Positions 14,355 to 49,019 of a stretch of 64,000 bases of DNA are shown here, piece after piece (positions within the stretch are counted from its first letter, which is position 1; every line of letters starts with the position of its first letter). Below the pieces are notes generated by a model. The model saw nothing but the letters and a program-made list of their open reading frames with translations. It did not search any database and was not told the origin of the DNA. The stretch comes from an uncultured Acidobacteriota bacterium (GTDB taxonomy: Bacteria; Acidobacteriota; Vicinamibacteria; Vicinamibacterales; 2-12-FULL-66-21). Both the position numbers and the translations under genes were made by a program. Where the stretch lies: contig CAWHNN010000017.1 in NCBI GenBank assembly GCA_963830815.1, forward strand, positions 29,750 to 93,749. Reading direction: 5' to 3'.

Positions 14355-14379
14355 TCAGGGTTCATGGTTCTGGGTTCTT
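14355..14379. repeat. one-armed tandem heptamer array (TCNNGGT x3.5) filling the sdhC-sdhA spacer
   Basis: TCAGGGT TCATGGT TCTGGGT TCTT, ending at the sdhA ATG. Confidence 0.7.
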
Positions 14380-16289
<1,910 letters not shown>

Positions 16290-16292
<3 letters not shown>

Positions 16293-16375
16293 TGCTGAAG
16301 TCTGAATGCTGAGTGCTGAATGAAGCGTTCAGCATTCAGCATTCATTCAGCATTCAGCATTCGACATTCAGCATT
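16290..16375. repeat. heptamer hairpin element, TGCTGAA/TTCAGCA class
   Basis: TAA TGCTGAA G TCTGAA TGCTGAG TGCTGAA TGAAGCG | TTCAGCA TTCAGCA TTCA TTCAGCA TTCAGCA TTCGACA TTCAGCA TT ATG. It spans from the sdhA stop to the sdhB start. Confidence 0.9.
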
Positions 16376-17116
16376 ATGCGAATTCTTCTAAAGGTTTGGC
16401 GGCAGTCGGGTCCGAAGGCTCGCCAGGCGAGCTCGTCGACTACGTGGTCGAGAACGCCTCGCCGGACATGTCCTTCCTCGAGATGCTCGACGTCGTCAAT
16501 GAGGGACTGATTGTGCAGGGCAAGGATCCGATCGCGTTCGACTCGGACTGCCGCGAGGGTATCTGCGGGGCGTGCGGCTTTCTCATCAACGGCGTCCCGC
16601 ACGGACCGGATCCGGGCACGACGGTCTGCCAGCTGCACATGCGGCGCTTCAAGGACAACGATCGCATCGTCCTCGAGCCGTGGCGCGCCAAGGCGTTTCC
16701 GCTGATCAAGGACCTCGTCGTCGATCGCAGCGCCTTCGATCGGATCATCCAGGCGGGGCTATACGTCGATCAACGTCGGCGGCGCGCCCGATGGCAACGC
16801 CATCCTCATCCCCGGTCCGGTCGTCGAACAGGCGATGGATTCGGCAGCCTGCATCGGCTGCGGTGCGTGCGTCGCCGCCTGCAAGAATGCGTCAGCTGCC
16901 CTCTTCACGTCAGCGAAGGTCAGCCACCTCGCGCTCCTGCCACAGGGAAAGGTCGAGCGCGACGCGCGGGTCGTCGCCATGGTCGATCGCCACGATCAGG
17001 AAGGGTTTGGCAGCTGCTCGAATGAGGGCGAGTGCGAGGCGGTGTGCCCGAAGGAAATCTCGATCACCAACATTGCGCGGATGAACCGGGAATACCTGCG
17101 AGCTACGCTTCTGTAG
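16376..17116 (+). CDS. sdhB: succinate dehydrogenase iron-sulfur subunit; frame breaks near 16405 and 16770
   Basis: [23 protein letters not shown] and [13 protein letters not shown] cluster motifs. ATG 16376 ([10 protein letters not shown]). Confidence 0.88.
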
Positions 17117-17182
17117 TGCTGAATTTCGAGTGCTGAGTGCTGAATGAATTCGGCACAGTTCACTTCAGCACTCAGCATTCAC
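17117..17182. repeat. heptamer hairpin element, TGCTGAA/TTCAGCA class, between convergent sdhB and mdh
   Basis: TGCTGAGTGCTGAA (17131-17144) is perfectly complementary to TTCAGCACTCAGCA (17164-17177). Confidence 0.9.
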
Positions 17183-18120
17183 TCAGACTTTAATGACGTC
17201 CACGAGTTCCTTGACGGCGCCAGCGGACTTCTTCAGCGCCGCGTCTTCTTCCGGCGTCAGCGTGATCTGAATGATCTGCTCGACGCCGCGAGCGCCGAGC
17301 TTCACGGGCACGCCAACGAAAAGGTCCTGAAGGCCGTACTCACCCTGCAGGAACACCGAGCAGGGAACGATCTTCTTCTTGTCCTTGAGGATGATCTCCA
17401 CCATCTCCGCCGCCGCCGAGCCCGGCGCATACCAGGCGCTGGTGCCCACGAGCTTGGTGATCTCGGCGCCGCCGTCGGCGGTGCGCTTGCAGATCGCCTC
17501 GATGCGCTCCTTCGAGATGAGCTCGGTGATCGGGATACCGGCGACCGTCGAGTAGCGCGGCAGCGGCACCATCGTGTCGCCGTGCCCGCCAAGGACGAAG
17601 GCGTGAATGTTCTCGACCGAAACGTTCAACTCCATGGCGATGAACGTGCGCATGCGCGCCGAGTCGAGGACGCCGGCCATGCCGATGACGCGCTCGCGCG
17701 GGAACTTGCTCAGGCGGTAACGGCCTGCGCCATCGCGTCGAGGGGATTCGCGACCGGCACGATGATCGTGTTCGGTGAGTACTTGACGATCTGCTCGGTG
17801 ACCGCCTGCATGATCTTGTAGTTGGTATTGAGCAGATCGTCGCGGCTCATGCCCGGCTTGCGCGGCATACCCGACGTGATGACGACCACGTCAGAATTCG
17901 CCGACGCCGCCCACCCCTCGTCGTTGGCGCCGTAGCCGACGACACGCGAGTCGGATCCCTCGATGGGGCACGCCTCGAGCATGTCCAGGCCGACGCCGCC
18001 GGCCTTCTGATCGGCGACGTCGATGATGACGACGTCCGCCAGTTCCTTGTCCGCAATGGCCCGCGCGACCGTGGCGCCAACCGCGCCCGCTCCTCCCACT
18101 ACCGTAACTTTTCTATTCAT
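17183..18120 (-). CDS. mdh: malate dehydrogenase (LDH-like); one frame break near 17715
   Basis: [27 protein letters not shown] and GGHGDTMVP. The junction reads AMAQAV / [16 protein letters not shown]. Confidence 0.9.
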
Positions 18121-18145
18121 CGACTAACCTCGAGGGAACACCTAC

Positions 18146-18237
18146 AGTGCTGAATGCGAATGTTGATTGCTGAATGAATGCTGATGCATGCTGAACGATT
18201 CGAAATTCATTCAGCATTCAGCACTCAGCATTCGACA
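18146..18237. repeat. heptamer hairpin element, TGCTGAA/TTCAGCA class, between icd stop and mdh start
   Basis: GTGCTGAA TGCGAA TGTTGAT TGCTGAA TGAA TGCTGAT GCA TGCTGAA .. A TTCAGCA TTCAGCA CTCAGCA TTCGACA. Confidence 0.9.
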
Positions 18238-19571
18238 TTACATATTGGCGATCATCGCGTCTGCGAATTCAGATGTCTTGAGCTCCTTCGCGCCGGTCAT
18301 CAGACGCGCGAAGTCGTACGTCACCTGCTTGGCCGCGATGGCGCCGTCCATGCCCTTGACGAGAAGGTCCGCCGCCTCGGTCCAGCCCATGTGCCGGAAC
18401 ATCATCTCGCCGGAGAGGACGACCGATCCCGGGTTGACCTTGTCCTGGTTGGCGTACTTCGGCGCGGTGCCGTGCGTCGCTTCGAAGACGGCGTGCCCGG
18501 TGACGTAGTTGATGTTGCCGCCCGGCGCGATGCCGATGCCGCCGACCTGGGCCGCCAGCGCGTCCGACAGGTAGTCGCCATTGAGGTTCGGCGTCGCGAT
18601 GACGTCGAACTCGTCTGGCCGGGTCAGCACCTGCTGCAGCGTGATGTCGGCAATCGCGTCCTTGATCACGAGGCCGGCGCCGGGCTTCCCTGCCGGAATC
18701 TTGCACCACGGGCCGCCGTCGATCTCCTCGGCGCCGAAGAACGTCTTCGCGACCTCGTAGCCCCAGTCGCGGAAGGCGCCCTCGGTGAACTTCATGATGT
18801 TGCCCTTGTGCACGAGCGTCACGCTCTTGCGATTGCTGGCAATCGCGTAGCTGATGGCGCTGTGGATCAGGCGCTCGCTCCCGAGATAGCTGATCGGCTT
18901 GAGGCCGATGCCGACCTGGACGCCGACTTCGCGTGCCGGGGCGCCGATGCCCTGCAGCAGTCCCTGCCACTCCTGGCCGGCCTGCGCCGTGCCAAAGCGG
19001 ATCTTCTTGAACTCCTTCGGAAACTCGCGCGCGAAGAAGTCGAGCAGCTTCTGCGCTTCCGGCGTGCCGGCGGCGTATTCGATGCCGGCGTAGATGTCCT
19101 CGGTGTTCTCGCGGAAGATCACCATGTCGACCTTCTCGGGATGCTTCACCGGCGACGGAACGCCTTTGAACCAGCGCACCGGCCTGAGGCAGACGTAGAG
19201 ATCGAGCAACTGGCGCAGCGCGACGTTCAGCGAGCGGATACCGCCGCCCACCGGCGTCGTCAGCGGTCCCTTGATGCCGACCAGATAGTGACGAAACGCC
19301 TCGACGGTTTCGTCCGGCAGCCACGTCGTCGAACTGTCTTGAAGCTCTTTTCGCCGGCGTAGACTTCGAACCAGGCGATCTTCTTCTTCCCGCCGTACGC
19401 TTTCTGCACCGCGGCATCGAAGACGCGCACGGATGCGCGCCAAATATCTGGCCCGGTGCCATCGCCTTCGATGAACGGGATGATAGGATCGTCGGGAACG
19501 ATGAGACGGCCATCCTTCTTGGTGATGGCGGTCCCTGTGGCGGGCGGCTTCAACATCGAAAAATTTGGCAT
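18238..19571 (-). CDS. icd: NADP-dependent isocitrate dehydrogenase (homodimeric type); two close frame breaks near 19330
   Basis: Near-colinear with my memory of E. coli Icd: [59 protein letters not shown] and [10 protein letters not shown]. Confidence 0.92.
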
Positions 19572-21956: not shown

Positions 21957-22049
21957 ATGCTGAATGCTGAATGCTCGAATGCTGAATGAGTTTATCGCTG
22001 CAGCTAATCCGGCATTCATTCAGCATTCACACTTCAGCATTCAGCATTG
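21957..22049. repeat. heptamer hairpin element, TGCTGAA/TTCAGCA class, in a divergent intergenic region
   Basis: TGCTGAA TGCTGAA TGCTCGAA TGCTGAA TGAG, a 23-nt centre, then A TTCA TTCAGCA TTCACAC TTCAGCA TTCAGCA. Confidence 0.9.
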
Positions 22050-26983: not shown

Positions 26984-28204
26984 TGGACGGCTACGTCGTA
27001 CTCCTCAGCGGCCTCGTTGCGTTACTCGTCGGTCTGGCAATGGGCAAGGCGTGGGAGCGCTACAAGCTACGCGACGGCCAGTGGATCGACCGCCGGCGCG
27101 CGCGCGAGTCGCCGCACTACATGCTCGGCCTCAATTTCCTCGCCGCCAACCAGACCGATTCTGCCATCGACGAGCTGACACGGGCCGCGGCGGCAGCCGG
27201 CGATCCGCTCGAGATCCATCTGATCCTCGGCAACCTCTATCGCGAGAAGGGACAGGTCGGCCGCGCCATCCAGGAGCATCAGAAGCTGCTGCAGCGCCCG
27301 GACCTGCGCAAGCTGGAGCACGCCAACGTCCTGCTCTGCCTCGGCCTCGACTACAAGCAGCGGCGGGTTCGTCGATCGCGCGCTCGAGGCGTTCAGCGAA
27401 GTGCCTGCGCCTCGATCCTGACAATCAGTACGCGTTGTCGAACCTGGAGAAGCTGTACGAAGAGCAGCACCAGTGGTCGGAAGCCTACGCGACGCGGCAG
27501 AAGCTCGCGCGGCGCGACGCCGACACCACCCACGCGCGGCACCAGGAGATCCTGGCGTTCCTCGACAACGAGCTCGGGCTCGACGCGCTCAAACGCAGCG
27601 ATCACGCCGAGGCCGCGCGCCGCTTCGAAGCAGCCATCGAGCTCGACGAGCACATCGTTCCGGCCTACCTAAATCTCGGCGATGTACGCCTGCAGAAGGG
27701 CGACATCGCCGGCGCGATTGCCGCGTGGGAGCGGGTCATCGAGAAGTCTCCCGAGCGTGCCTACCTCGCATTCGACCGGCTGGAAACGGCGTATCCGCAG
27801 GGTAACGGCCGGGATCGCTTTCCGGCGCTCTGCCGTCAATTGATCGATTCCAATCCCCTGGACTGGCGCGCCCGGCTGGCGCTCGCCCGGCACTTGTCGG
27901 CGCACGGCTCACCCGAGGCAGCCTGGAGATGCTGTTCGAGGCCCTGGTCCACAACCCGCACGCGCTCGTCCTCCATCAGGCGATCTGGAGACGTTGTCGG
28001 TGCTGAACCTGCCGCCGGCGCTCGTACGGCCGCTACGTCGACCTGACGCGCGACGCCGTTTTCTACCTCGACCCGCACATCTGCATCCGCTGCCGCTATC
28101 GCAGCACCGAGCTCCTCTGGCAATGCCCGCAATGCCACGAGTGGAACACGTTCATCGAGGAACGGATCGCGCCGGCCAAAGAAACGCTGAAGTCTGACGT
28201 CTGA
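26983..28204 (+). CDS. lapB: lipopolysaccharide assembly protein B (TPR + C-terminal rubredoxin-like Zn site); about 4 frame breaks
   Basis: N-terminal helix VVLLSGLVALLVGLAMG, TPR repeats, and C-terminal CIRCRY..WQCPQCHEWNTF. The ATG overlaps the kdsC stop (TGATG). Confidence 0.8.
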
Positions 28205-28239
28205 GGTTGGCGGCTGGCGGCTGGCTGCTGGCTGTTCCA
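28205..28239. repeat. one-armed tandem heptamer array (GGCTGGC-like x5) after lapB
   Basis: GGTTGGC GGCTGGC GGCTGGC TGCTGGC TGTTCCA directly after the lapB stop. Confidence 0.75.
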
Positions 28240-29839: not shown

Positions 29840-31557
29840 GGGATTCCTACGACTTCTTCGACGACCGCGTCAGCACGAAGCCCGACGACCGTGGCGACGA
29901 GCCCGACGGCGAAAATCTTGAGGCCGAAGGCGTCGGCAATCTGCCGGGTTGATGTGCAGGCCGAACCAGCCGGTCAGCATCGTGTCGAGCTCGTGCCACT
30001 TCGCCAGCTCCTCCGAGATCGCGCCCCACTCCGTCAGCAGGCCGAGCAGCGTGATGCAGAAGCCGTTGAACATCAGCATGTAGCCGGCCATCTTCAAGAA
30101 GTTGCCCAGGCTCTCGGCGCCGACTGCGCGCGGCGGTCTCGGCCGCGATTCGCGAGTTGACTGTGGGTGCGGCCGTAGAACCAGTAGATCACCATGCCGA
30201 GGTCGAGCCACACGAGGAAGCGGACCCAGGTCATGACCGTGAGGTTGACCATCAGATAGGCGAAAACACGACGCCGCACACGGGAATGACGTAGCCGAAC
30301 GGCACCTTGAACGGCCGCATCGCATCGGGCCGCGACCGGCGCAGGATGATGACGGCCATGCAGACGACGACGAAAGCAAACAGCGTCCCGATGCTGGTCA
30401 TCTCGCCGAGGACATTGATCGGCGTGAAACCGGCCACGATGGCCACGATCACGCCGGTGATCATCGTCGTGATGTACGGCGTGCGGAACCGCGGATGCAC
30501 CTTGCTGACGCCTGGCGGCAGCAGCTGGTCGCGGCTCATCGCGAAGAAGATGCGCGGCTGGCTCATGAGCATGACGAGCAGGACGCTGGTGATGCCGGCG
30601 ACGGCGCCCGCCGAGACGAGCCCCGCAGCCCAGTCCTTGTTGATCACGTGCAGCGCGTAGCCGACCGGGGCGTTCAGGAACTGCGCGTCCGCCTTGAACT
30701 GCACAACCGGGATGATGCCGCTGAGGATGCCGGCGACGGCCAGGTAGAGGACCGTGCAGATGACGAGCGACGCGATGATGCCGATCGGCAGGTCACGGCT
30801 CGGGTTCTTGGCTTCCTCGGCCGTCGTCGAAACAGCGTCGAAGCCGATGTAGGCGAAGAAGACGACCGCCGCGGCTGCCGAGACGCCCGCCCAGCCGTAA
30901 GGCAGGAACGGCGACCAGTTCTCCGGCTTGACGTAGCCGACGCCGACAACGATGAAGAACAGGATGGCGGCGAGCTTCACGGCGACCATCACGGCGTTGA
31001 AGCGGGCGCTCTCGCGAACGCCGATGACGAGCAGCGCCGAGATGACGAGGACGATGATGATCGCCGGCAGGTTGACGACCGCGCCTTCCACGCCAGCCGC
31101 CGGCGCGGCAGACATCCAGGCCGGCAGGTGGATGCTGAAAGCCCGCGAGGATGCGCTGGAAGTAACCGGACCATCCGACGGCCACCGTCATCGATCCGAC
31201 CGCGTACTCGAGAATCAGGTCCCAGCCGATCATCCACGCGAAGATCTCGCCGAGCGTGGCGTAGGCGTAGGTATACGCGCTGCCGGAGATCGGAATCATC
31301 GCGGCGAACTCGGCGTAGCACAGCGCCGCGAAGGCGCAGACGACGCCGGCCATCACGTACGACAGCACGATGGCCGGGCCCGCCTGGTTTGCTGCCGCCG
31401 TGCCCGTCAGGACGAAGATGCCGGTCCCGATGATCGCGCCGATGCCGAGCAGGGTCAGGTCCATCGCCGTGAGCGTGCGTTTCAGCGCCTTGGCACCGCT
31501 TTCGGCGTCTCCGACCAGTTGCTCGATCGACTTGGTCTTCAGGAGATTCGAATCCAT
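29836..31557 (-). CDS. APC-superfamily amino acid permease (cationic amino acid transporter-like, with C-terminal extension); about 4 frame breaks
   Basis: LGIGAIIGTGIFVLTG, FFAYIGFDAVSTTAEEAKNP and about 12-14 hydrophobic segments joined across three frames. Confidence 0.82.
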
Positions 31558-32269
31558 TCACCCTCCAGAAAAGGCAGCCAGGCCCGCGTCAGACTTCGCG
31601 GACCGTCCGTCAGCGCCCGGCATCGGCGTGAAAACGGCGGCATTATACATTGAACGGGTTGGGCTGGCAGGGCGGCGAGGAATGCGCGGACGCGCGCTTC
31701 TGCGTCGTCGCCGGCGAGAATGTCGGATATGACGGCGACCGCGGACGCGCCGGCGGCGACGACCGACGGCGCGCGCTCCAGCGTGATGCCGCCGATCGCG
31801 ACGACGGGCTTGCCGCGGCCCGCGGCGTAACTCACCAGCTCGAGCCCCCGCGCCGTATAGCCCGTCTCTTTCGTGGCGGTCGAAAAAATCGGCCCGACGG
31901 CGACGTAGCTCGCGTCGGTCGCGAGCGCCGCATCAACCTGCGCCCGGTCGTGTGTCGAGAGACCGACGATCGCGTCCGGACCGACGATGCCGCGGACTTC
32001 GGCGACTGGCAGATCGGTCTGGCCGACATGAACGCCGTCGGCGCCGGCACATCCGCGCGATATCGGCCCGGTCGTTGACGATGACTTCCTGCCGGCGTCG
32101 TGAGCGGCGGCGACGATGCGATCCGTGAGAATCGTGAAGCGGCGCTCGAGTCGTCCTTGCCGCGAACCTGAAGCCACTCCGCCCCGCCCCTGAGACAGGC
32201 CTGGGCGAGCGCCACAGGATCGATCCCGCGCTCGCGGCAGAAGGCGGTGTCGATGATGGGATAGAGCAT
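31539..32269 (-). CDS. thiE: thiamine-phosphate synthase; 2-3 frame breaks; 3' end uncertain
   Basis: MLYPIID, ADGVHVGQTDLP, VAVGPIFSTATK and VVAIGGI. The ORF runs past the expected end into the permease promoter region. Confidence 0.78.
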
Positions 32270-32276
32270 CCGTCGA

Positions 32277-32377
32277 GGTTCAGGGTTCAACGTTCAGTCG
32301 GTTAAGGGTTCACGTTTCACCGCAGTCCCGACTCGAACCTGGAACGACCGTGAACCCTGAACCCGAACGCTGAACTT
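32277..32377. repeat. heptamer hairpin element, GGTTCAG/CTGAACC class, between accC and thiE
   Basis: GGTTCAG GGTTCAA CGTTCAG .. GGGTTCAC .. GTGAACC CTGAACC CGAACGC TGAACTT. Confidence 0.85.
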
Positions 32378-43623: not shown

Positions 43624-44109
43624 ATGGGTTCGTTTGTCCCCACCGCCGGAACCATCACCCGGCAGTGGCACGTGATTGACGCCGACGGTCAGGTACTGGG
43701 CCGCGTGGCGACTGAAGCCGCCCGCCTGTTGCAGGGAAAGCACAAGCCGGTCTACACCCCGTATATCGATACCGGCGACCACGTTGTCGTGGTCAATGCC
43801 GCACGTGTCGTCATGACCGGGCGCAAGGAAGAACAGAAGCTTTACCGCTACCACTCGGGGTACGAAGGCGGCGTCCGCCAGGAGCGCGCGAAGGAAGTGC
43901 GCCAGAAGGACCCGCGCCGGTTGGTCGAGGAAGCCGTGCGCGGCATGCTTCCCAAGACCACGCTGGGCGAGGCCATGTGGCGCAAGCTGAAGGTCTATCC
44001 CGACGCGCAGCATCCGCACCAGGCGCAGGGGCCGAAACCGTTCGCCGTCTCGAGCGGCCCGGGCAAGAAGTCAGCCGACAAGAAGTCGAAAAAGCGAGAG
44101 GTCGCCTAA
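43624..44109 (+). CDS. rplM: 50S ribosomal protein L13 (with Lys-rich C-terminal extension)
   Basis: [21 protein letters not shown] and VVVNA. Intact. Confidence 0.95.
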
Positions 44110-44110
44110 C

Positions 44111-44506
44111 GTGGCAGCAGGGATTGAGTATTACGGCACGGGCCGCCGGAAGAAGTCGACCGCCCGAGTATTTCTTCGCCCCGGAACCGGGGGCATCGTC
44201 ATCAACCGCAAACCCATCGAGACGGCCTTCCCCACCGAGGCACTGCGCACGCAAATCAGGCAGCCGATGGCGGTGACGGAAACGACCGACAAGTTCGACG
44301 TGCTGGCGACCATCGCCGGCGGCGGCACGGCTGGACAGGCAGGAGCGCTGCGCCTCGGAATCGCGCGCGCCCTCGTCGAGTACAACGTCGAGCTGCGGCA
44401 GCGCCTCAAGAAGGCCGGGTTCCTGACGCGCGACGCGCGCATCAAGGAACGGAAGAAGTACGGACAGAAGGGCGCGCGTAAGCGCTTCCAGTTCAGCAAG
44501 AGATAG
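44111..44506 (+). CDS. rpsI: 30S ribosomal protein S9
   Basis: [30 protein letters not shown] and the C-terminal [18 protein letters not shown]. Confidence 0.95.
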
Positions 44507-44577
44507 TTCAGCTCTCAGCGAGCAGCACCGGCTTTCAGCAATCAAGCTGCAAGCTGAAGGCTGACGGCTGACAGCTC
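44507..44577. repeat. heptamer hairpin element, TTCAGCN/GCTGANN class, between rpsI and rpsB
   Basis: TTCAGCT CTCAGCG AGCAGCA .. TTCAGCA .. GCTGAAG GCTGACG GCTGACA GCT. Confidence 0.8.
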
Positions 44578-44590
44578 CAATGGAGGAAGC

Positions 44591-45397
44591 TTGAACGGCA
44601 TCGCGTTGAAGGATTTGCTCGAAGCAGGAGTCCATTTCGGTCACCAGACGAAGCGCTGGAACCCGAAGATGAAGTCGTACATCTTCGGCGAGCGGAACGG
44701 GATCTACATCATCGACCTGGCCAAGACAGCCAAGCTGTTCCGCGACGCGGAGCAGTTCACGATGAATCTCGCAGCCGAAGGACGCACGATCCTGTTTGTG
44801 GGCACCAAGCGGCAGGCGCAGGACGCGGTGGCGGAAGAAGCGCAGCGGTGCGGCATGTTCTTCGTGAACCAGCGCTGGCTCGGCGGGTTGCTGACGAACT
44901 TTACGACCATCCAGCGCAGTCTGTCGCGCCTCCGCGACCTCGAAGCGATGGAGACCGACGGCCGCTACGACACGCTGTCGAAGAAGGAGATCGCGCAGAT
45001 CGAGAAAGAAAAGCGCAAGCTCCAGAAGAACCTCGAAGGTATCCGCCACATGTCGCGGCTGCCCGATGCCCTCTTCGTCGTCGACACGCGCAAGGAAAAG
45101 ATCGCCGTCGACGAGGCGCGAAAGCTGAAGATTCCGGTCATCGGCGTCGTCGACACCAACTGCGATCCCGACGAAGTCGATTACGTCATCCCCGGCAACG
45201 ACGATGCGCTGCGCGCGATTCGCCTCTTCGCGGCGAAGATTGCCGACGCAGTGCTTGGCGGCCGTGGCATCCGTGAGTCGGCGCAGGCTGACGACGAGAC
45301 CGACGCCGACGAACGCGGCCGACGTGGCGCGGCGCGCCCCGGTACCACCGCTCGTCCGGCCCGGCCCGAACAGGCCACTTCGACGGCCACCGTCTAG
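44591..45397 (+). CDS. rpsB: 30S ribosomal protein S2
   Basis: [19 protein letters not shown] and [11 protein letters not shown] start with GGAGGA upstream. Confidence 0.93.
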
Positions 45398-45414
45398 ACG
45401 GAACGCCCTCTCGA

Positions 45415-45452
45415 TTCTCGCGCCGGCCCGGGCTTCTCCGCGCCGGCGTTCT
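45415..45452 (+). terminator. possible terminator after rpsB
   Basis: CGCCGGC (45421-45427) pairs with GCCGGCG (45442-45448), followed by TTCTT. Confidence 0.35.
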
Positions 45453-45460
45453 TATGTACT

Positions 45461-45580
45461 TCAGTCGTCAGTCATCAGTCCGTCGGCTCGGCAGTCCTCA
45501 GTCGGCAGCTCGACGATCGACTGAAATTCTGACGACTGAAGACAGACGACTGAAGACTGAGAAGACTGACGACTGACGAC
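45461..45580. repeat. heptamer hairpin element, TCAGTCN/GACTGAN class, between rpsB and tsf
   Basis: TCAGTCG TCAGTCA TCAGTCC .. CCTCAGT CGGCAGC TCGACGATCGA CTGAAAT .. GACTGAA GACAGAC GACTGAA GACTGAG .. GACTGAC GACTGAC. Confidence 0.85.
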
Positions 45581-45590
45581 GAGGCAACTA

Positions 45591-46196
45591 ATGGAAATCA
45601 CAGCAGCGATGGTGAAGAAGCTCCGCGACACGACGGGCGCGGGGATGATGGAGTGCAAGGCGGCGCTGACCGAGGCCAAGGGCGACATGGAGGAAGCGAC
45701 GACCATCCTCCGCAAGCGCGGTCTCGCGCAGGCGACCAAGAAGGCCGGCCGCTCCACCAACGAGGGGCTCATCGGCAACTACATCCACATGGGCGGCAAG
45801 ATCGGCGTCATGGTCGAGATCAACTGCGAGTCCGATTTCGTCGCGCGCACTGATGACTTCCAGGGCATGGCGCGCGAGATCGCGATGCACATCGCCGCCG
45901 CCAGCCCGCAGTATGTCCGGCGCGAGGAAGTCCCTGCCGAGGTTCTCGAGCGCGAGAAGGAAATCTTTCGCGCGCAGATGAAGGATCAGAACAAGCCGGC
46001 ACAGGTCATCGAGAAGATCGTCGACGGCAAGCTAAACAGCTTCTACGAGCAAGTGTGCCTGATGGATCAGCCGTCGGTCCGCGACCCCAAGGTGACGATC
46101 GGCCAGGTCGTGCAGGCCGCGATCGCCAAGCTCGGCGAGAACATCACCGTCCCGCGCTTCGTTCGCTACAAGCTTGGCGAAACGAGCGGGAACTGA
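45591..46196 (+). CDS. tsf: translation elongation factor Ts (short form)
   Basis: AAMVKKLRDTTGAGMMECKAAL and EINCESDFVAR. Intact. Confidence 0.93.
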   Translation: MEITAAMVKKLRDTTGAGMMECKAALTEAKGDMEEATTILRKRGLAQATKKAGRSTNEGLIGNYIHMGGKIGVMVEINCESDFVARTDDFQGMAREIAMHIAAASPQYVRREEVPAEVLEREKEIFRAQMKDQNKPAQVIEKIVDGKLNSFYEQVCLMDQPSVRDPKVTIGQVVQAAIAKLGENITVPRFVRYKLGETSGN

Positions 46197-46204
46197 ATAG
46201 AGAT

Positions 46205-46270
46205 CGTTCAAGGTTCAAGGTTCGAACGGGTTCATGAAGCCGCTGAACCTTGAACCCTGAACCTTGAACG
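46205..46270. repeat. heptamer hairpin element, GTTCAAG/CTTGAAC class, between tsf and pyrH
   Basis: GTTCAAG GTTCAAG GTTCGAA CGG GTTCATG AAGCCGC TGAACCT TGAACCC TGAACCT TGAACGA. Confidence 0.88.
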
Positions 46271-46292
46271 ATGCAGATATAATCGCCCTGCC

Positions 46293-47006
46293 ATGCCTCC
46301 CGTCTACAGCCGCGTACTCCTCAAGCTCTCTGGCGAAGCCCTCATGGGCGAACAGCAGTATGGAATCGATCCTGCTGTGGCGAGCCGCATCGCCGCCGAT
46401 ATCGGTGAAATTCAGCAGCTCGGCGTGCAGACAGCCGTGGTCATCGGCGGCGGCAACCTCTTTCGCGGCCTCGCGGCCAGCGCGAAGGGCATGGATCGCG
46501 CGACCGCTGACTACATGGGCATGCTGGCGACGGTCATCAATGGCCTCGCCCTGCAGGATGCGCTCGAGAAGCACAACGTCGTGACACGCGTCGCGACGGC
46601 TATCGAGATGCGCGCCGTCGCCGAGCCGTTCATCCGCCGCCGGGCCGTACGCCACCTCGAGAAGGGACGCGTTGTCGTTTTTGCCGCCGGCACGGGGAAT
46701 CCGTACTTCACGACCGACACCGCCGCGGCCCTCCGCGCGATGGAGATGAAGGCGGACGTCATCCTCAAGGGCACCAAAGTCGACGGCATCTACACCGCCG
46801 ACCCGATGATCGACAAGACGGCGACGAAGTACCAGGAAATCTCGTACCTCAAGGTCCTCGAGCAGGGCCTCAAGGTCATGGACGCCACCGCAATCTCGCT
46901 CTGCATGGACAACCGCCTCCCTATCGTCGTCTTCAACCTTCGGACGGCTGGAAACCTGAAGCGGGTCATCATGGGCGAGCCGATTGGAACGACCGTCAAG
47001 GTCTGA
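46293..47006 (+). CDS. pyrH: UMP kinase
   Basis: [19 protein letters not shown] and [17 protein letters not shown]. Intact. Confidence 0.93.
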
Positions 47007-47028
47007 CGAACTGCAAGCTGGGGGAACT

Positions 47029-47598
47029 ATGGACGCGACAGACATAAAGGGGCTCTTCGCTGAACTGAAGAAGCGGATGGATGGGCAGCTCGATCACGTG
47101 CGGCGAGAGTTCGGCGGCGTTCGTACAGGACGCGCGTCGGTGACCATCCTCGACGCCGTTCACGTCGAAGCCTACGGCTCGCAGGTGCCCCTGAATCAGG
47201 TCGCCTCGCTGTCGATCCCCGAGCCCACACTCATCGTCGCGACACCGTTCGATCCGTCGTTGACGGCAACCATCGAGAAGGCCATCCGCAGCGCCAACCT
47301 CGGGCTCAACCCGGCGACCGACGGCAAGGCCATCCGCATCCCCCTTCCCGCCTTGACTGAAGAACGGCGCAAGGAGATGTCGAAGCTCGTGCACAAGTAC
47401 GCCGAAGAAGGTCGCAACGGCGTGCGTCAGGCGCGGCGCGACGCCAACGATCGGCTGAAGAAGCTCCTCAAGGATTCCAAGATCTCCGAAGACGACGAGC
47501 GGCGCGGCCTCGAGGACGTGCAGAAAGCCACCGACCAGCACATCGCCCAGATCGACGAGCTCCAGAAGAAGAAGGACACGGAGCTGCTCGGGAAGTAG
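47029..47598 (+). CDS. frr: ribosome recycling factor
   Basis: VRTGRASVTILD, PLPALTEERRKE and RRDAND. ATG 47029 inside ORF 46984..47598. Confidence 0.92.
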   Translation: MDATDIKGLFAELKKRMDGQLDHVRREFGGVRTGRASVTILDAVHVEAYGSQVPLNQVASLSIPEPTLIVATPFDPSLTATIEKAIRSANLGLNPATDGKAIRIPLPALTEERRKEMSKLVHKYAEEGRNGVRQARRDANDRLKKLLKDSKISEDDERRGLEDVQKATDQHIAQIDELQKKKDTELLGK

Positions 47599-47669
47599 GA
47601 ATCTGAATGCTGAATGCTGAATGAATTCAGAACTCATTCAGCATTCAACATTCAACATTCAGCATTGCC
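47599..47669. repeat. heptamer hairpin element, TGCTGAA/TTCAGCA class, between frr and thrC
   Basis: TCTGAA TGCTGAA TGCTGAA TGAATTCAGAACTCA TTCAGCA TTCAACA TTCAACA TTCAGCA TTGCC ATG. This gives a stem of about 20 bp with one mismatch. Confidence 0.9.
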
Positions 47670-48833
47670 ATGATCCACCTAGAGTGCTCGGCGCCGTGCG
47701 GCGCCGGGCCATACGATCCGAAAGCAGTCGAACACCACCTCTGTTCCTGCGGCGCGCCACTCCTCGCCCGCTACGATCTCGACGCCGCTCGCTCCTGGCG
47801 ACGTGAATCCCTCGCATCGCGCGAACCGACGATGTGGCGGTACCGCGAGCTGATGCCGCTGTTCGAAGGCGAGTCGCCGATAACGCTCGGCGAGGGCTGG
47901 ACGCCGCTCGTCCACGCCCGGCGCCTGGGCGCAACGCTCGGCATGTCGCGGCTCTACGTCAAAGACGAATCGCTGAACCCGACCAATTCGTTCAAGGCGC
48001 GCGGGCTGTCCGCGGCCGTGACGCGGGCGTTCTATCTCGGCGCGAAGACGCTCTCGGTGCCCTCGGCCGGCAATGCTGCGAACGCTGTCGCGGCCTACGC
48101 CGCCGCGGCCGGCCTCGAGGCGAAGGTCTTCATGCCCAAAGACGTCAAGGTCCCCTTCATCCGCGAATGCGAGCTCTACGGTGCGGAAGTCACGCTCGTC
48201 GACGGACTGATCACCGATGCCGGCCGCATCGCCGCGGAAAGGGGGAAGCCGCTCGGCTGGTACGACATGTCGACGCTGAAGGAGCCGTACCGCATCGAAG
48301 GCAAGAAGACGATGGCCTACGAGATCGCCGAACAGCTCGGGTGGTCACTCCCCGACTGGATCATCTATCCAACCGGCGGCGGCACCGGCATGGTCGGCAT
48401 GTGGAAGGCCTTCGACGAGATGGAGCGCATCGGCTGGCTCGAGCGCGGCAGGCGGCCAAAGATGGTTTCGGTGCAGGCGGAACACTGCGCGCCGATCGTC
48501 AAGGCGTTCGAGCAGGGCGCGGAGCGATCCGAGATGTGGCAGGGTGCGCGTACGGTGGCTGATGGCCTGCGTGTTCCCAAGGCCGTCGGCGATTTCCTCG
48601 TCCTCCGCGCGGTGCGCGAGAGCGGCGGCACCGCTGTCGCGGTAAGCGACGAGGACATGGTTGCCGGAATGCTGGAGCTCGGGAAACGCGAAGGCATCAG
48701 CGCAGCGCCCGAAGGCGGGGCGGCCCTGCAGGCACTCAAGCACCTGCTTGAAACGGGACTTGCGAACTCCCGAGTCCGTCGTCCTCTTCAATACTGGCGG
48801 TGCGCTGAAGTATCTCGAGCCCTCGTACACTGA
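47670..48833 (+). CDS. thrC: threonine synthase-like PLP enzyme with N-terminal Cys-rich segment; frame break near 48765; 3' end uncertain (48833 or up to 48942)
   Basis: NPTNSFKARG (PLP lysine), SAGNAANAVAAYAA and YPTGGGTGMVG. The tail NTGGALKYLE is in another frame. Confidence 0.72.
   Translation: MIHLECSAPCGAGPYDPKAVEHHLCSCGAPLLARYDLDAARSWRRESLASREPTMWRYRELMPLFEGESPITLGEGWTPLVHARRLGATLGMSRLYVKDESLNPTNSFKARGLSAAVTRAFYLGAKTLSVPSAGNAANAVAAYAAAAGLEAKVFMPKDVKVPFIRECELYGAEVTLVDGLITDAGRIAAERGKPLGWYDMSTLKEPYRIEGKKTMAYEIAEQLGWSLPDWIIYPTGGGTGMVGMWKAFDEMERIGWLERGRRPKMVSVQAEHCAPIVKAFEQGAERSEMWQGARTVADGLRVPKAVGDFLVLRAVRESGGTAVAVSDEDMVAGMLELGKREGISAAPEGGAALQALKHLLETGLANSRVRRPLQYWRCAEVSRALVH

Positions 48834-48943: not shown

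Positions 48944-49017
<74 letters not shown>

Positions 49018-49019
<2 letters not shown>

Follow-up and report, generated by a model that had tools for sequence, protein, structure and literature searches.

Heptamer hairpins in the spacers of the window

The window analyzed here, the whole 64-kb stretch of DNA, has a GC content of 65.5% and contains a set of intergenic hairpins made of tandem heptamers, which we compared with related loci and contigs (labelled L) and with small genes of the family PF05635. The closest EF-Ts and Icd relatives of the window are uncultured Acidobacteriota, the named ones being Vicinamibacterales. The initial annotation had described five AT-rich hairpins in which TGCTGAA-like units face TTCAGCA-like units, and sequence inspection together with an inverted-repeat search placed all five copies at its coordinates. 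Its count held for this family but was too low for the window, which also contains four hairpins with other units and two one-armed arrays. The elements are the following.

E1, 16290-16376, unstranded: TGCTGAA/TTCAGCA, filling the spacer from the sdhA stop to the sdhB ATG; 35-nt arms, 86% complementary; fold -55.1 kcal/mol, z -7.5
E2, 17117-17182, unstranded: TGCTGAA family, between the convergent sdhB and mdh stop codons; fold -38.8 kcal/mol on the + strand and -35.1 kcal/mol on the - strand
E3, 18146-18237, unstranded: TGCTGAA family, from the icd stop to the mdh ribosome-binding site (genes on the - strand); fold -43.9 kcal/mol, z -5.1
E4, 21957-22049, unstranded: TGCTGAA family, between a hypothetical gene (-) and the divergently transcribed kdsB (+); fold -55.6 kcal/mol, z -6.0
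E5, 47599-47669, unstranded: TGCTGAA family, from the frr stop to the ATG of a gene for a pyridoxal phosphate (PLP)-dependent enzyme; fold -33.5 kcal/mol, z -4.7
E6, 32277-32375, unstranded: GGTTCAG/CTGAACC, between a biotin-carboxylase gene and thiE (both -); fold -48.6 kcal/mol, z -2.75, the weakest of the nine hairpins
E9, 44488-44578, unstranded: NTCAGCN/GCTGANN, from the rpsI end to the rpsB ribosome-binding site; fold -33.5 kcal/mol
E7, 45459-45580, unstranded: TCAGTCG/CGACTGA, from the terminator-like hairpin after rpsB to the tsf ribosome-binding site; fold -57.9 kcal/mol, z -4.1
E8, 46203-46272, unstranded: GTTCAAG/CTTGAAC, from the tsf stop to the conserved GATATAAT box upstream of pyrH; arms 95% complementary; fold -44.5 kcal/mol, z -6.9
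One-armed array, 14358-14379, + strand: GGGTTCA TGGTTCT GGGTTCT, flush with the sdhA ATG
One-armed arrays, 28187-28234, + strand: GAAGTCT GACGTCT GAGGT, then TGGCKGC four times, in the lapB|coaE spacer

E1 to E5 follow one plan, in which repeated TGCTGAA-like heptamers lead through a short centre to repeats of the complementary TTCAGCA, and their alignment revealed a single family with a conserved centre, TGCTGAATGAAT ... ATTCATTCAGCA, and with variant units in common, among them TTCGACA in copies 1 and 3. The 12-mer GAATGCTGAATG, with up to 2 mismatches allowed, occurs 36 times in the window compared with 3.66 +/- 1.87 times in shuffled sequences (largest value, 8), and 31 of the 36 matches fall within the five loci. 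The ordered variant units and the common centre indicate common descent of the five copies. The perfect 14-bp pairing at 17131-17144/17164-17177 reported previously was correct and sits inside a 17-nt arm pair that is 94% complementary, and the predicted pairing in several registers was recovered by the inverted-repeat search as seven overlapping pairs at the first locus. RNA folding of E1 to E5 gave energies of -33 to -56 kcal/mol and z-scores between -4.7 and -7.5; the overall range recorded was -29 to -58 kcal/mol. The elements are indeed AT-rich (GC 0.38-0.48 vs 0.655 for the window) and begin at or near stop codons, as had been stated; the stop is the first triplet or lies no more than 2 nt away at sdhA, sdhB, icd and frr. 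The E1 element opens with the TAA stop, and the ATG comes directly after its last paired base, without a Shine-Dalgarno sequence.

TGCTGAA itself, which the initial annotation had treated as the defining feature, does not define these elements. Because the unit differs between loci and between genomes while the period-7 mirrored architecture is constant, we take the architecture as the defining feature. Our own detector, which finds arrays at lag p and then pairs them where their consensus units are reverse complements, returned six hairpins in the window and 15 in the related loci scanned for period arrays (1.26 Mb in total) at p = 7, and none in either set at periods 5, 6 and 8-11. The period-7 arrays of the window were also called by TRF (Tandem Repeats Finder). 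The GC content of the stems is 38-56%, and all nine hairpins and both one-armed arrays lie outside coding sequence. A conserved TGA, giving stops in three frames, was considered as a hallmark of the unit and rejected; it is present in all nine window elements and fails in L001, L011 and several Blastocatellia loci.

Analysis of the gene context showed that seven of the nine hairpins separate co-directional genes (sdhA|sdhB, icd|mdh, frr|PLP-enzyme gene, biotin carboxylase|thiE, rpsI|rpsB, rpsB|tsf and tsf|pyrH), and that the other two occupy a convergent spacer (sdhB and mdh) and a divergent one (the hypothetical gene and kdsB). An automated survey of stop and start distances gave medians of -3 for the stop and 9 for the start, with a Shine-Dalgarno sequence in 8 of 74 cases; these noisy values are a rough indication, given the spurious open reading frames (ORFs) on both strands of high-GC DNA.

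Just after rpsB, at 45420-45452, a GC-rich hairpin is followed by TTCTT. It is kept in L032, L001, L002, L008 and L011, always ends in ...TGTAC, and resembles a conserved terminator or attenuator of the rpsB|tsf spacer. A GATATAAT/TATAAT box at 46277-46285 is likewise found in L032, L001, L002, L004, L008 and L011, 10-20 nt upstream of pyrH in all relatives whether a hairpin is present or not, and may be the -10 element of an internal promoter.

Several core genes of the window are split by frameshifts, in 14380-19570 (sdhA, sdhB, mdh and icd) and in 31539-32271 (thiE); the reading frame of mdh holds only as far as residue 136 or so, and that of Icd is lost at the N-terminus. L201, a long-read assembly with 96% identity, shows the same fragmentation. 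These frameshifts resemble long-read assembly error, not pseudogenes, and given their likeness to those of L201 the window is probably part of a nanopore metagenome-assembled genome. An exact-match look-up of the window's EF-Ts protein gave no hit, as such look-ups miss frameshifted genes. A tRNA-Ala gene (anticodon CGC) lies at 48944-49019, downstream of the PLP-enzyme gene. An Rfam scan of the window at the gathering score reported tRNA only, with no rRNA and no match to the hairpins; a permissive scan gave only sub-threshold eukaryotic microRNA precursor hairpins, which were discarded as generic hairpin matches.

Turnover at orthologous spacers and occurrence in metagenomes

Comparison of 80 tsf loci revealed strict heptamer hairpins in Pyrinomonadaceae/Blastocatellia, Chloracidobacterium and Vicinamibacteria-like genomes, and none in Bryobacterales/Terriglobia or other phyla. 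Their units are highly diverse (ATTGCGG, GTAAATG, CAGTTTT, GAGTTAC, AAGTTTC and others). An acidobacterial hairpin at L065 9604-9681 consists of ACAGTTA/TAACTGA, a heptamer that is abundant as direct repeats in marine Beggiatoaceae.

The same spacers are filled with different units, or are empty, from one relative to the next. Between rpsB and tsf, hairpins are present in the window (TCAGTCN) and L032 (TCAGCTN), and in L001 and L002 just 5-6 nt separate the conserved terminator-like hairpin from the ribosome-binding site. The tsf|pyrH spacer contains GGTTCAA-type arrays in the window and L032, GTTCCGG in L011, GTGGTYC in L001 and none in L002 and L004. Downstream of frr, the window, L032, L001 and L011 are filled with four different units, and the spacer is short or empty in L002, L004 and L006. 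The sdhA|sdhB hairpin takes up the whole stretch between stop and ATG in each of the three genomes compared, with TGCTGAA units in the window, CAGCTTC in L203 (5 versus 11 units) and AGCTTCC in L202. At icd|mdh, L201 (96% Icd identity) has a diverged copy at the place of E3. Upstream of kdsB, L203 has a CAGCTTC-type hairpin where the window has E4; since TGCTGAA thus occupies both sdhA|sdhB and kdsB in the window, and CAGCTTC both in L203, each genome has its own dominant family, even at sites in common.

Other repeats were also seen in these spacers. At L202 11345-11420, the icd|mdh spacer holds 11-mer arrays (GGGGTCARACC twice and GGTYTGACCCC three times), the sole non-heptamer example seen. 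The mdh-sdhB convergent spacer of L203 (11940-12195, 257 nt) consists of two tandem GC-rich units of about 110 nt, each opening with CAAGGTCTA, an apparent duplicate of the mdh 3' end.

A scan of metagenomes with GARTGCTGANTGCTGAATGA showed the TGCTGAA family in at least 120 stretches, and about 30 among the matches listed have a complementary arm no more than 110 nt away. Most of the matches listed lie on soil and rhizosphere contigs of 60-66% GC, and one 14.8-kb contig among them carries four copies. Over all loci we counted 63 strict hairpins, with a GC content 0-31 points, typically 10-25 points, under that of the locus; by a rough assignment of context, 31 are co-directional, 11 convergent and 5 divergent, 3 are seemingly inside ORFs and 13 lie at contig edges. 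In L081-L200, many of the TGCTGAA-array matches lie some 50 nt or less from where a contig stops, a hint that repeats of this type break short-read assemblies. A minority of the L081-L200 matches are unrelated low-GC satellite-like arrays (e.g., L135 and L144).

PF05635 genes between heptamer arms

At three related loci, the two arms lie hundreds of bases apart around a small gene. L118, at the lapB|coaE site, has TGCTGAA arms around a PF05635 gene (frameshifted), L170 has TGCTGAA arms around another, and L202 has GAAGTNN arms of 17 and 27 units around a PF05635 gene between coaE and lapB. The enclosed proteins match Pfam PF05635 (23S rRNA-intervening sequence protein) with E-values of 5e-23 and 3e-14, and also match NCBIfam TIGR02436 (four helix bundle protein) as well as PDB entry 2RLD, which is uncharacterised. 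PF05635 was first found inside intervening sequences (IVS) of 23S rRNA and is homologous to Avd of diversity-generating retroelements. Published descriptions call the family uncharacterised and Avd-like (PMC10053308; bioRxiv 10.1101/2024.02.27.582315).

Further PF05635 homologues were then fetched regardless of repeats. L204 and L205 have TGCTGAA arms, and their PF05635 gene separates the genes for an ABC ATPase and its permease. L206-L211 have GAATGGT arms, and gene-less GAATGGT hairpins with the same termini, CGCGAATG...CATTCGCG, lie 2 kb away. Bracketed PF05635 genes were also found inside a type I restriction operon in L212 (Ozemobacteraceae), between atpG and atpD in L215 and in two copies in L217 (Flavobacteriaceae). 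A tblastn search of plasmids yielded 31 records, mostly from Nostocales, the classical organisms of the short tandemly repeated repetitive (STRR) elements, and fourteen of these were fetched. The gene is enclosed by inverted heptamer arrays in Nostoc punctiforme, N. flagelliforme (31 nt perfect), Nostoc HK-01 and Nostoc N6 (34 nt perfect), as well as in Planktothrix, Euhalothece, Gloeocapsa, Bernardetia, Chlorohelix and Monoglobus; Pseudanabaena and Treponema show a more complex layout, and Anabaena cylindrica and Chondrinema a weak one.

For each PF05635 gene we computed a flank score, the best gapless inverted-repeat score between the 130-nt flanks, with random placements in the same loci as control. 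The 22 genes, from seven phyla, scored 10-34, and the 633 control placements had a median of 7, a 99th percentile of 12 and a maximum of 13; 17 of the 22 genes exceeded the maximum of all controls. Where complementary heptamer arrays stand 350-800 nt apart in the loci examined, the DNA between them nearly always holds a PF05635 gene. The genes are co-directional within host operons, and the innermost repeat units contain or adjoin their start and stop codons.

The operons that house PF05635 genes are often defence operons (L212, L218, L222, L227, L229, L230 and L231), with neighbours such as hsdS|hsdR, cas2|cas1, csx2|cas1, helicase|N6-methylase and DUF1156|HEPN; housekeeping operons (in Acidobacteria, L215 and L228) include those for an ABC transporter, atpG|atpD and RND efflux. 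A fixed polarity, with the GA-rich arm 5' of the gene, fits most non-cyanobacterial cases and was discarded on account of L220, L224, L226 and L229. A GAAT/ATTC core was counted by hand in the units of about 9 of 18 contexts, a suggestive figure that is confounded by the descent of these homologues from a search with a single query protein.

The arms themselves change by whole units and mirror each other. Arm-length polymorphism, a check proposed in the initial annotation, was found between L204 (10395-10427; GCA_015657855.1) and L205 (1755-1780; GCA_015657915.1), where the 3' arm of the PF05635 cassette at the same locus is shorter in L205 by exactly one heptamer, an ATTCAGC unit. In L202, the variant units of the two arms occur in mirrored order, and 123 of 136 gapless positions are Watson-Crick pairs in spite of unit variation along the array, so that one arm is an inverted copy of the other and the two are not independent microsatellites. 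Mismatches on the sense strand revealed no preference for G.U over A.C (18 vs 12 in the cassettes, 3 vs 6 in the window), most mismatches being non-wobble, and folding energies showed no strand bias, the sense strand being no better. Since neither points to selection of an RNA helix, the complementarity of the arms looks like a product of their origin or of DNA-level homogenisation.

The lapB|coaE spacer holds a TGCTGAA cassette in L118 (74% identical to the window over lapB), a GAAGTNN cassette in L202, a one-armed array of about 22 units in L203 and three GAAGTCT-like units in the window. The spacer thus illustrates decay of the cassette.

Origin of the hairpins and comparison with known systems

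We incline, if with modest confidence, to the view that the window hairpins are gene-less members of a class of palindromic heptamer-array cassettes, whose full-length members carry PF05635. The ends of such a cassette would be mirrored arrays of degenerate heptamers, of which the short forms would keep a small loop only, and the elements may persist as selfish or near-neutral DNA. Once transcribed, the arms would fold into a long hairpin whose stem base sets the upstream stop beside the downstream start, a geometry that is present at E1, E5 and the sdhA|sdhB hairpins of L202 and L203. Because the stem would join stop and start, an insertion could be tolerated, with operon expression and translational coupling surviving. 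By analogy with IVS and the Correia elements of Neisseria, the stems are likely substrates of RNase III or barriers to 3' exonucleases.

Several observations weigh against this origin from PF05635 cassettes. No PF05635 gene was found in the window or in the 80 tsf loci, and the link, which the window by itself would not have revealed, rests on related contigs, of which L118 and L170 were ascertained via the repeat. No PF05635 gene flanked by any of the window's four other units was seen. The plasmid set is mostly cyanobacterial and these genomes are rich in heptamer repeats anyway; the local background control argues against coincidence there. Any mobility is putative, as no target-site duplication was visible when filled rpsB|tsf and tsf|pyrH spacers were set against empty ones, and PF05635 has no known catalytic activity. 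Recurrence at the same spacers in several lineages, flush with stop and start codons, could mean a host function, and the order of events may have been the opposite, PF05635 genes having entered the loops of pre-existing hairpins.

The hairpins may alternatively be RNA devices selected by the host, either coupling cistrons, where the terminating ribosome melts the stem base and frees the start, or setting mRNA half-life. We consider this unlikely, though it draws on several features of the elements. The stop lies at or within 2 nt of the stem base at E1, E5 and the sdhA|sdhB hairpins of L202 and L203 (E6 is an exception), and at these and at E6 the start follows about 0-11 nt past the 3' arm without a Shine-Dalgarno sequence. 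The stop and start medians and the scarcity of Shine-Dalgarno sequences in the rough distance survey agree with a coupling device, hairpins recur at the same spacers across lineages despite different sequences, and such a role has been suggested for STRR (PMC2670836). However, the hairpins are dispensable, in that the same spacers are short and hairpin-free in L002, L004 and L006; the transcribed strand shows neither the G.U preference nor the better folding of a selected helix; one copy lies in a divergent promoter region and another between convergent genes; E3, E7 and E9 have Shine-Dalgarno sequences, so that coupling is not needed; and the survey is noisy from spurious ORFs.

Plain local microsatellites, in which heptamers slip in place, as is common in bacteria, palindromy arises by local inverted duplication and PF05635 is incidental, are a distinctly improbable source. 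Unit-number polymorphism, one-armed arrays, the differences in unit between loci and genomes, and the lack of target-site duplications all fit such an origin, and heptamers are reported, in a statement quoted in PMC4679880, to be the commonest long simple repeats in prokaryotes. Against slippage in place, the five window copies share ordered variant units and a centre, the same family recurs in the soil metagenome stretches, including the two-armed matches, one family occupies several loci per genome and another genome's family the same loci, and the PF05635 genes are flanked by heptamer palindromes that in 17 of 22 cases exceed every control.

Sites acting at the DNA level, where a regulator or nucleoid protein would bind the heptamers or cruciforms would act on promoters, are very improbable. 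They would account for the symmetry on both strands without an RNA-strand bias, for E4 in a divergent promoter region, and for E8, which abuts the conserved TATAAT-like box and whose units resemble -35 hexamers (TTGAAC). Most copies, however, are inside operons, far from promoters, a promoter scan found nothing at the elements, and the units vary so widely between loci of one genome that a single binding protein is unlikely.

Rho-independent terminators or attenuators, a role that had also been considered for the elements and to which stable hairpins right after stop codons, with E2 between convergent genes, would be suited, can be rejected with little hesitation, because no U-tract or T-run follows any of them, a terminator scan of 44000-48000 called none of the four hairpins there, the stems are AT-rich with many mismatches and split co-expressed operons (sdhA|sdhB and rpsI|rpsB), and the canonical GC-rich stem with its TTCTT run stands separately just upstream of E7 and is kept in relatives without E7.

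Heptamer hairpins are common in two classes of the Acidobacteriota, which are major soil bacteria, and there they lie inside core operons for the tricarboxylic acid cycle, for ribosomal proteins and for translation factors. If the window hairpins are gene-less PF05635 cassettes, binding of the protein to the repeats, RNase III processing of the polycistronic mRNAs and a cassette number that follows the hairpin number would be expected. In practice, the elements seem to break short-read assemblies, create spurious ORFs, and are worth masking or annotating in acidobacterial and cyanobacterial genomes. Our literature search, whose coverage was incomplete so that earlier notice is possible, found nothing on heptamer hairpins in Acidobacteria or on PF05635 together with heptamer arrays.

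Among known systems, STRR and repetitive extragenic palindromic (REP) sequences had been named earlier as the nearest comparisons, sensibly so for a family of dispersed, AT-rich, intergenic hairpins with tandem-heptamer arms. REP sequences are single palindromes of about 35-40 nt with a conserved head, which are mobilised by RAYT transposases and stabilise upstream mRNA. They and the bacterial interspersed mosaic elements (BIME) resemble the hairpins as dispersed imperfect palindromes in operon spacers and after convergent genes, co-transcribed with them, whereas the arms here are heptamer arrays of 20-60 nt and the alignment contains no GTAG/CGTC-type or otherwise conserved head. Correia elements end in defined repeats of 26 nt, duplicate a TA target and give hairpins that RNase III processes. 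Like these elements of Neisseria (also called NEMIS), the hairpins are short, have inverted ends, lie beside genes and would be transcribed into hairpins; they differ in that the arms are heptamer arrays and no duplication was seen. Of the traits of miniature inverted-repeat transposable elements, terminal inverted repeats are present, the whole element being an inverted repeat, and a target-site duplication is absent at the compared spacers; a longer form with the same arms exists, and its gene is PF05635, without known transposase activity.

TAACTGA repeats of Beggiatoaceae, cyanobacteria and Bacteroidetes (MacGregor 2015) end a few nucleotides before starts, usually without a Shine-Dalgarno sequence, contain stop codons in all frames and are almost all direct and one-armed, with one inverted case (PMC4679880). 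They share with our elements the intergenic heptamer arrays beside start codons, and the L065 hairpin has the TAACTGA unit, but their arrays are direct and one-armed where ours form mirrored arms.

IVS with an S23p/PF05635 ORF occur in Coxiella and Leptospira, and ORF-less IVS in Salmonella. The Coxiella IVS, a selfish element of 428 nt, carries a PF05635 ORF, is flanked by a 28-bp stem cleaved by RNase III and has a GC content below that of the genome, and ORF-less versions exist in other bacteria (PMC4990558). The parallel of gene-bearing and gene-less forms extends to the complementary termini in a long stem, with or without a PF05635 ORF, and to the GC content below that of the host; the elements here lie between protein-coding genes, whereas IVS lie in helix 9, 25 or 45 of 23S rRNA.

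The closest likeness is to STRR sequences, which were described in cyanobacteria around 1990. The consensus units of STRR1-3 of heterocystous cyanobacteria are CCCCAGT, TTGGTCA and CAACAGT, which are not the units found here (TGCTGAA, GGTTCAG, TCAGTCG, GTTCAAG and NTCAGCN, in a Vicinamibacterales-like host). The initial annotation's statement that no hairpin of two inverted heptamer arrays was known is wrong, since the 7-bp STRR repeats are reported to form just such hairpins, for example between hupS and hupL, for which transcript stability or translational coupling has been proposed (PMC2670836). Both systems have tandem 7-bp units in dispersed intergenic positions, with inverted arrays forming hairpins between co-transcribed genes, and the heptamer arrays of Nostoc plasmids also bracket PF05635 genes; GAATTGC, the arm unit of the cassette in Nostoc N6, is listed as an abundant heptamer in Nostoc PCC 7120 (PMC2408588). 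The differences are the phylum, the units and the GC-rich genome, which makes the elements AT-rich islands. In the STRR literature searched, with incomplete coverage, no link of the repeats to PF05635 was found.

More tentatively, and with clear doubt, STRR sequences and these hairpins could both be the ends or gene-less remnants of a widespread PF05635 cassette of operon spacers and rRNA (there as IVS), whose Avd-like four-helix-bundle pentamer would recognise 7-nt repeats, one per subunit or binding surface, and would aid arm spread, homogenisation or RNA processing. The identity of STRR sequences, the role of PF05635/TIGR02436 outside diversity-generating retroelements and the origin of rRNA IVS may then be one phenomenon. 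The elements of the window are of a known kind, STRR-like repeats; what is new is the phylum and the units, and the association with PF05635 across phyla.

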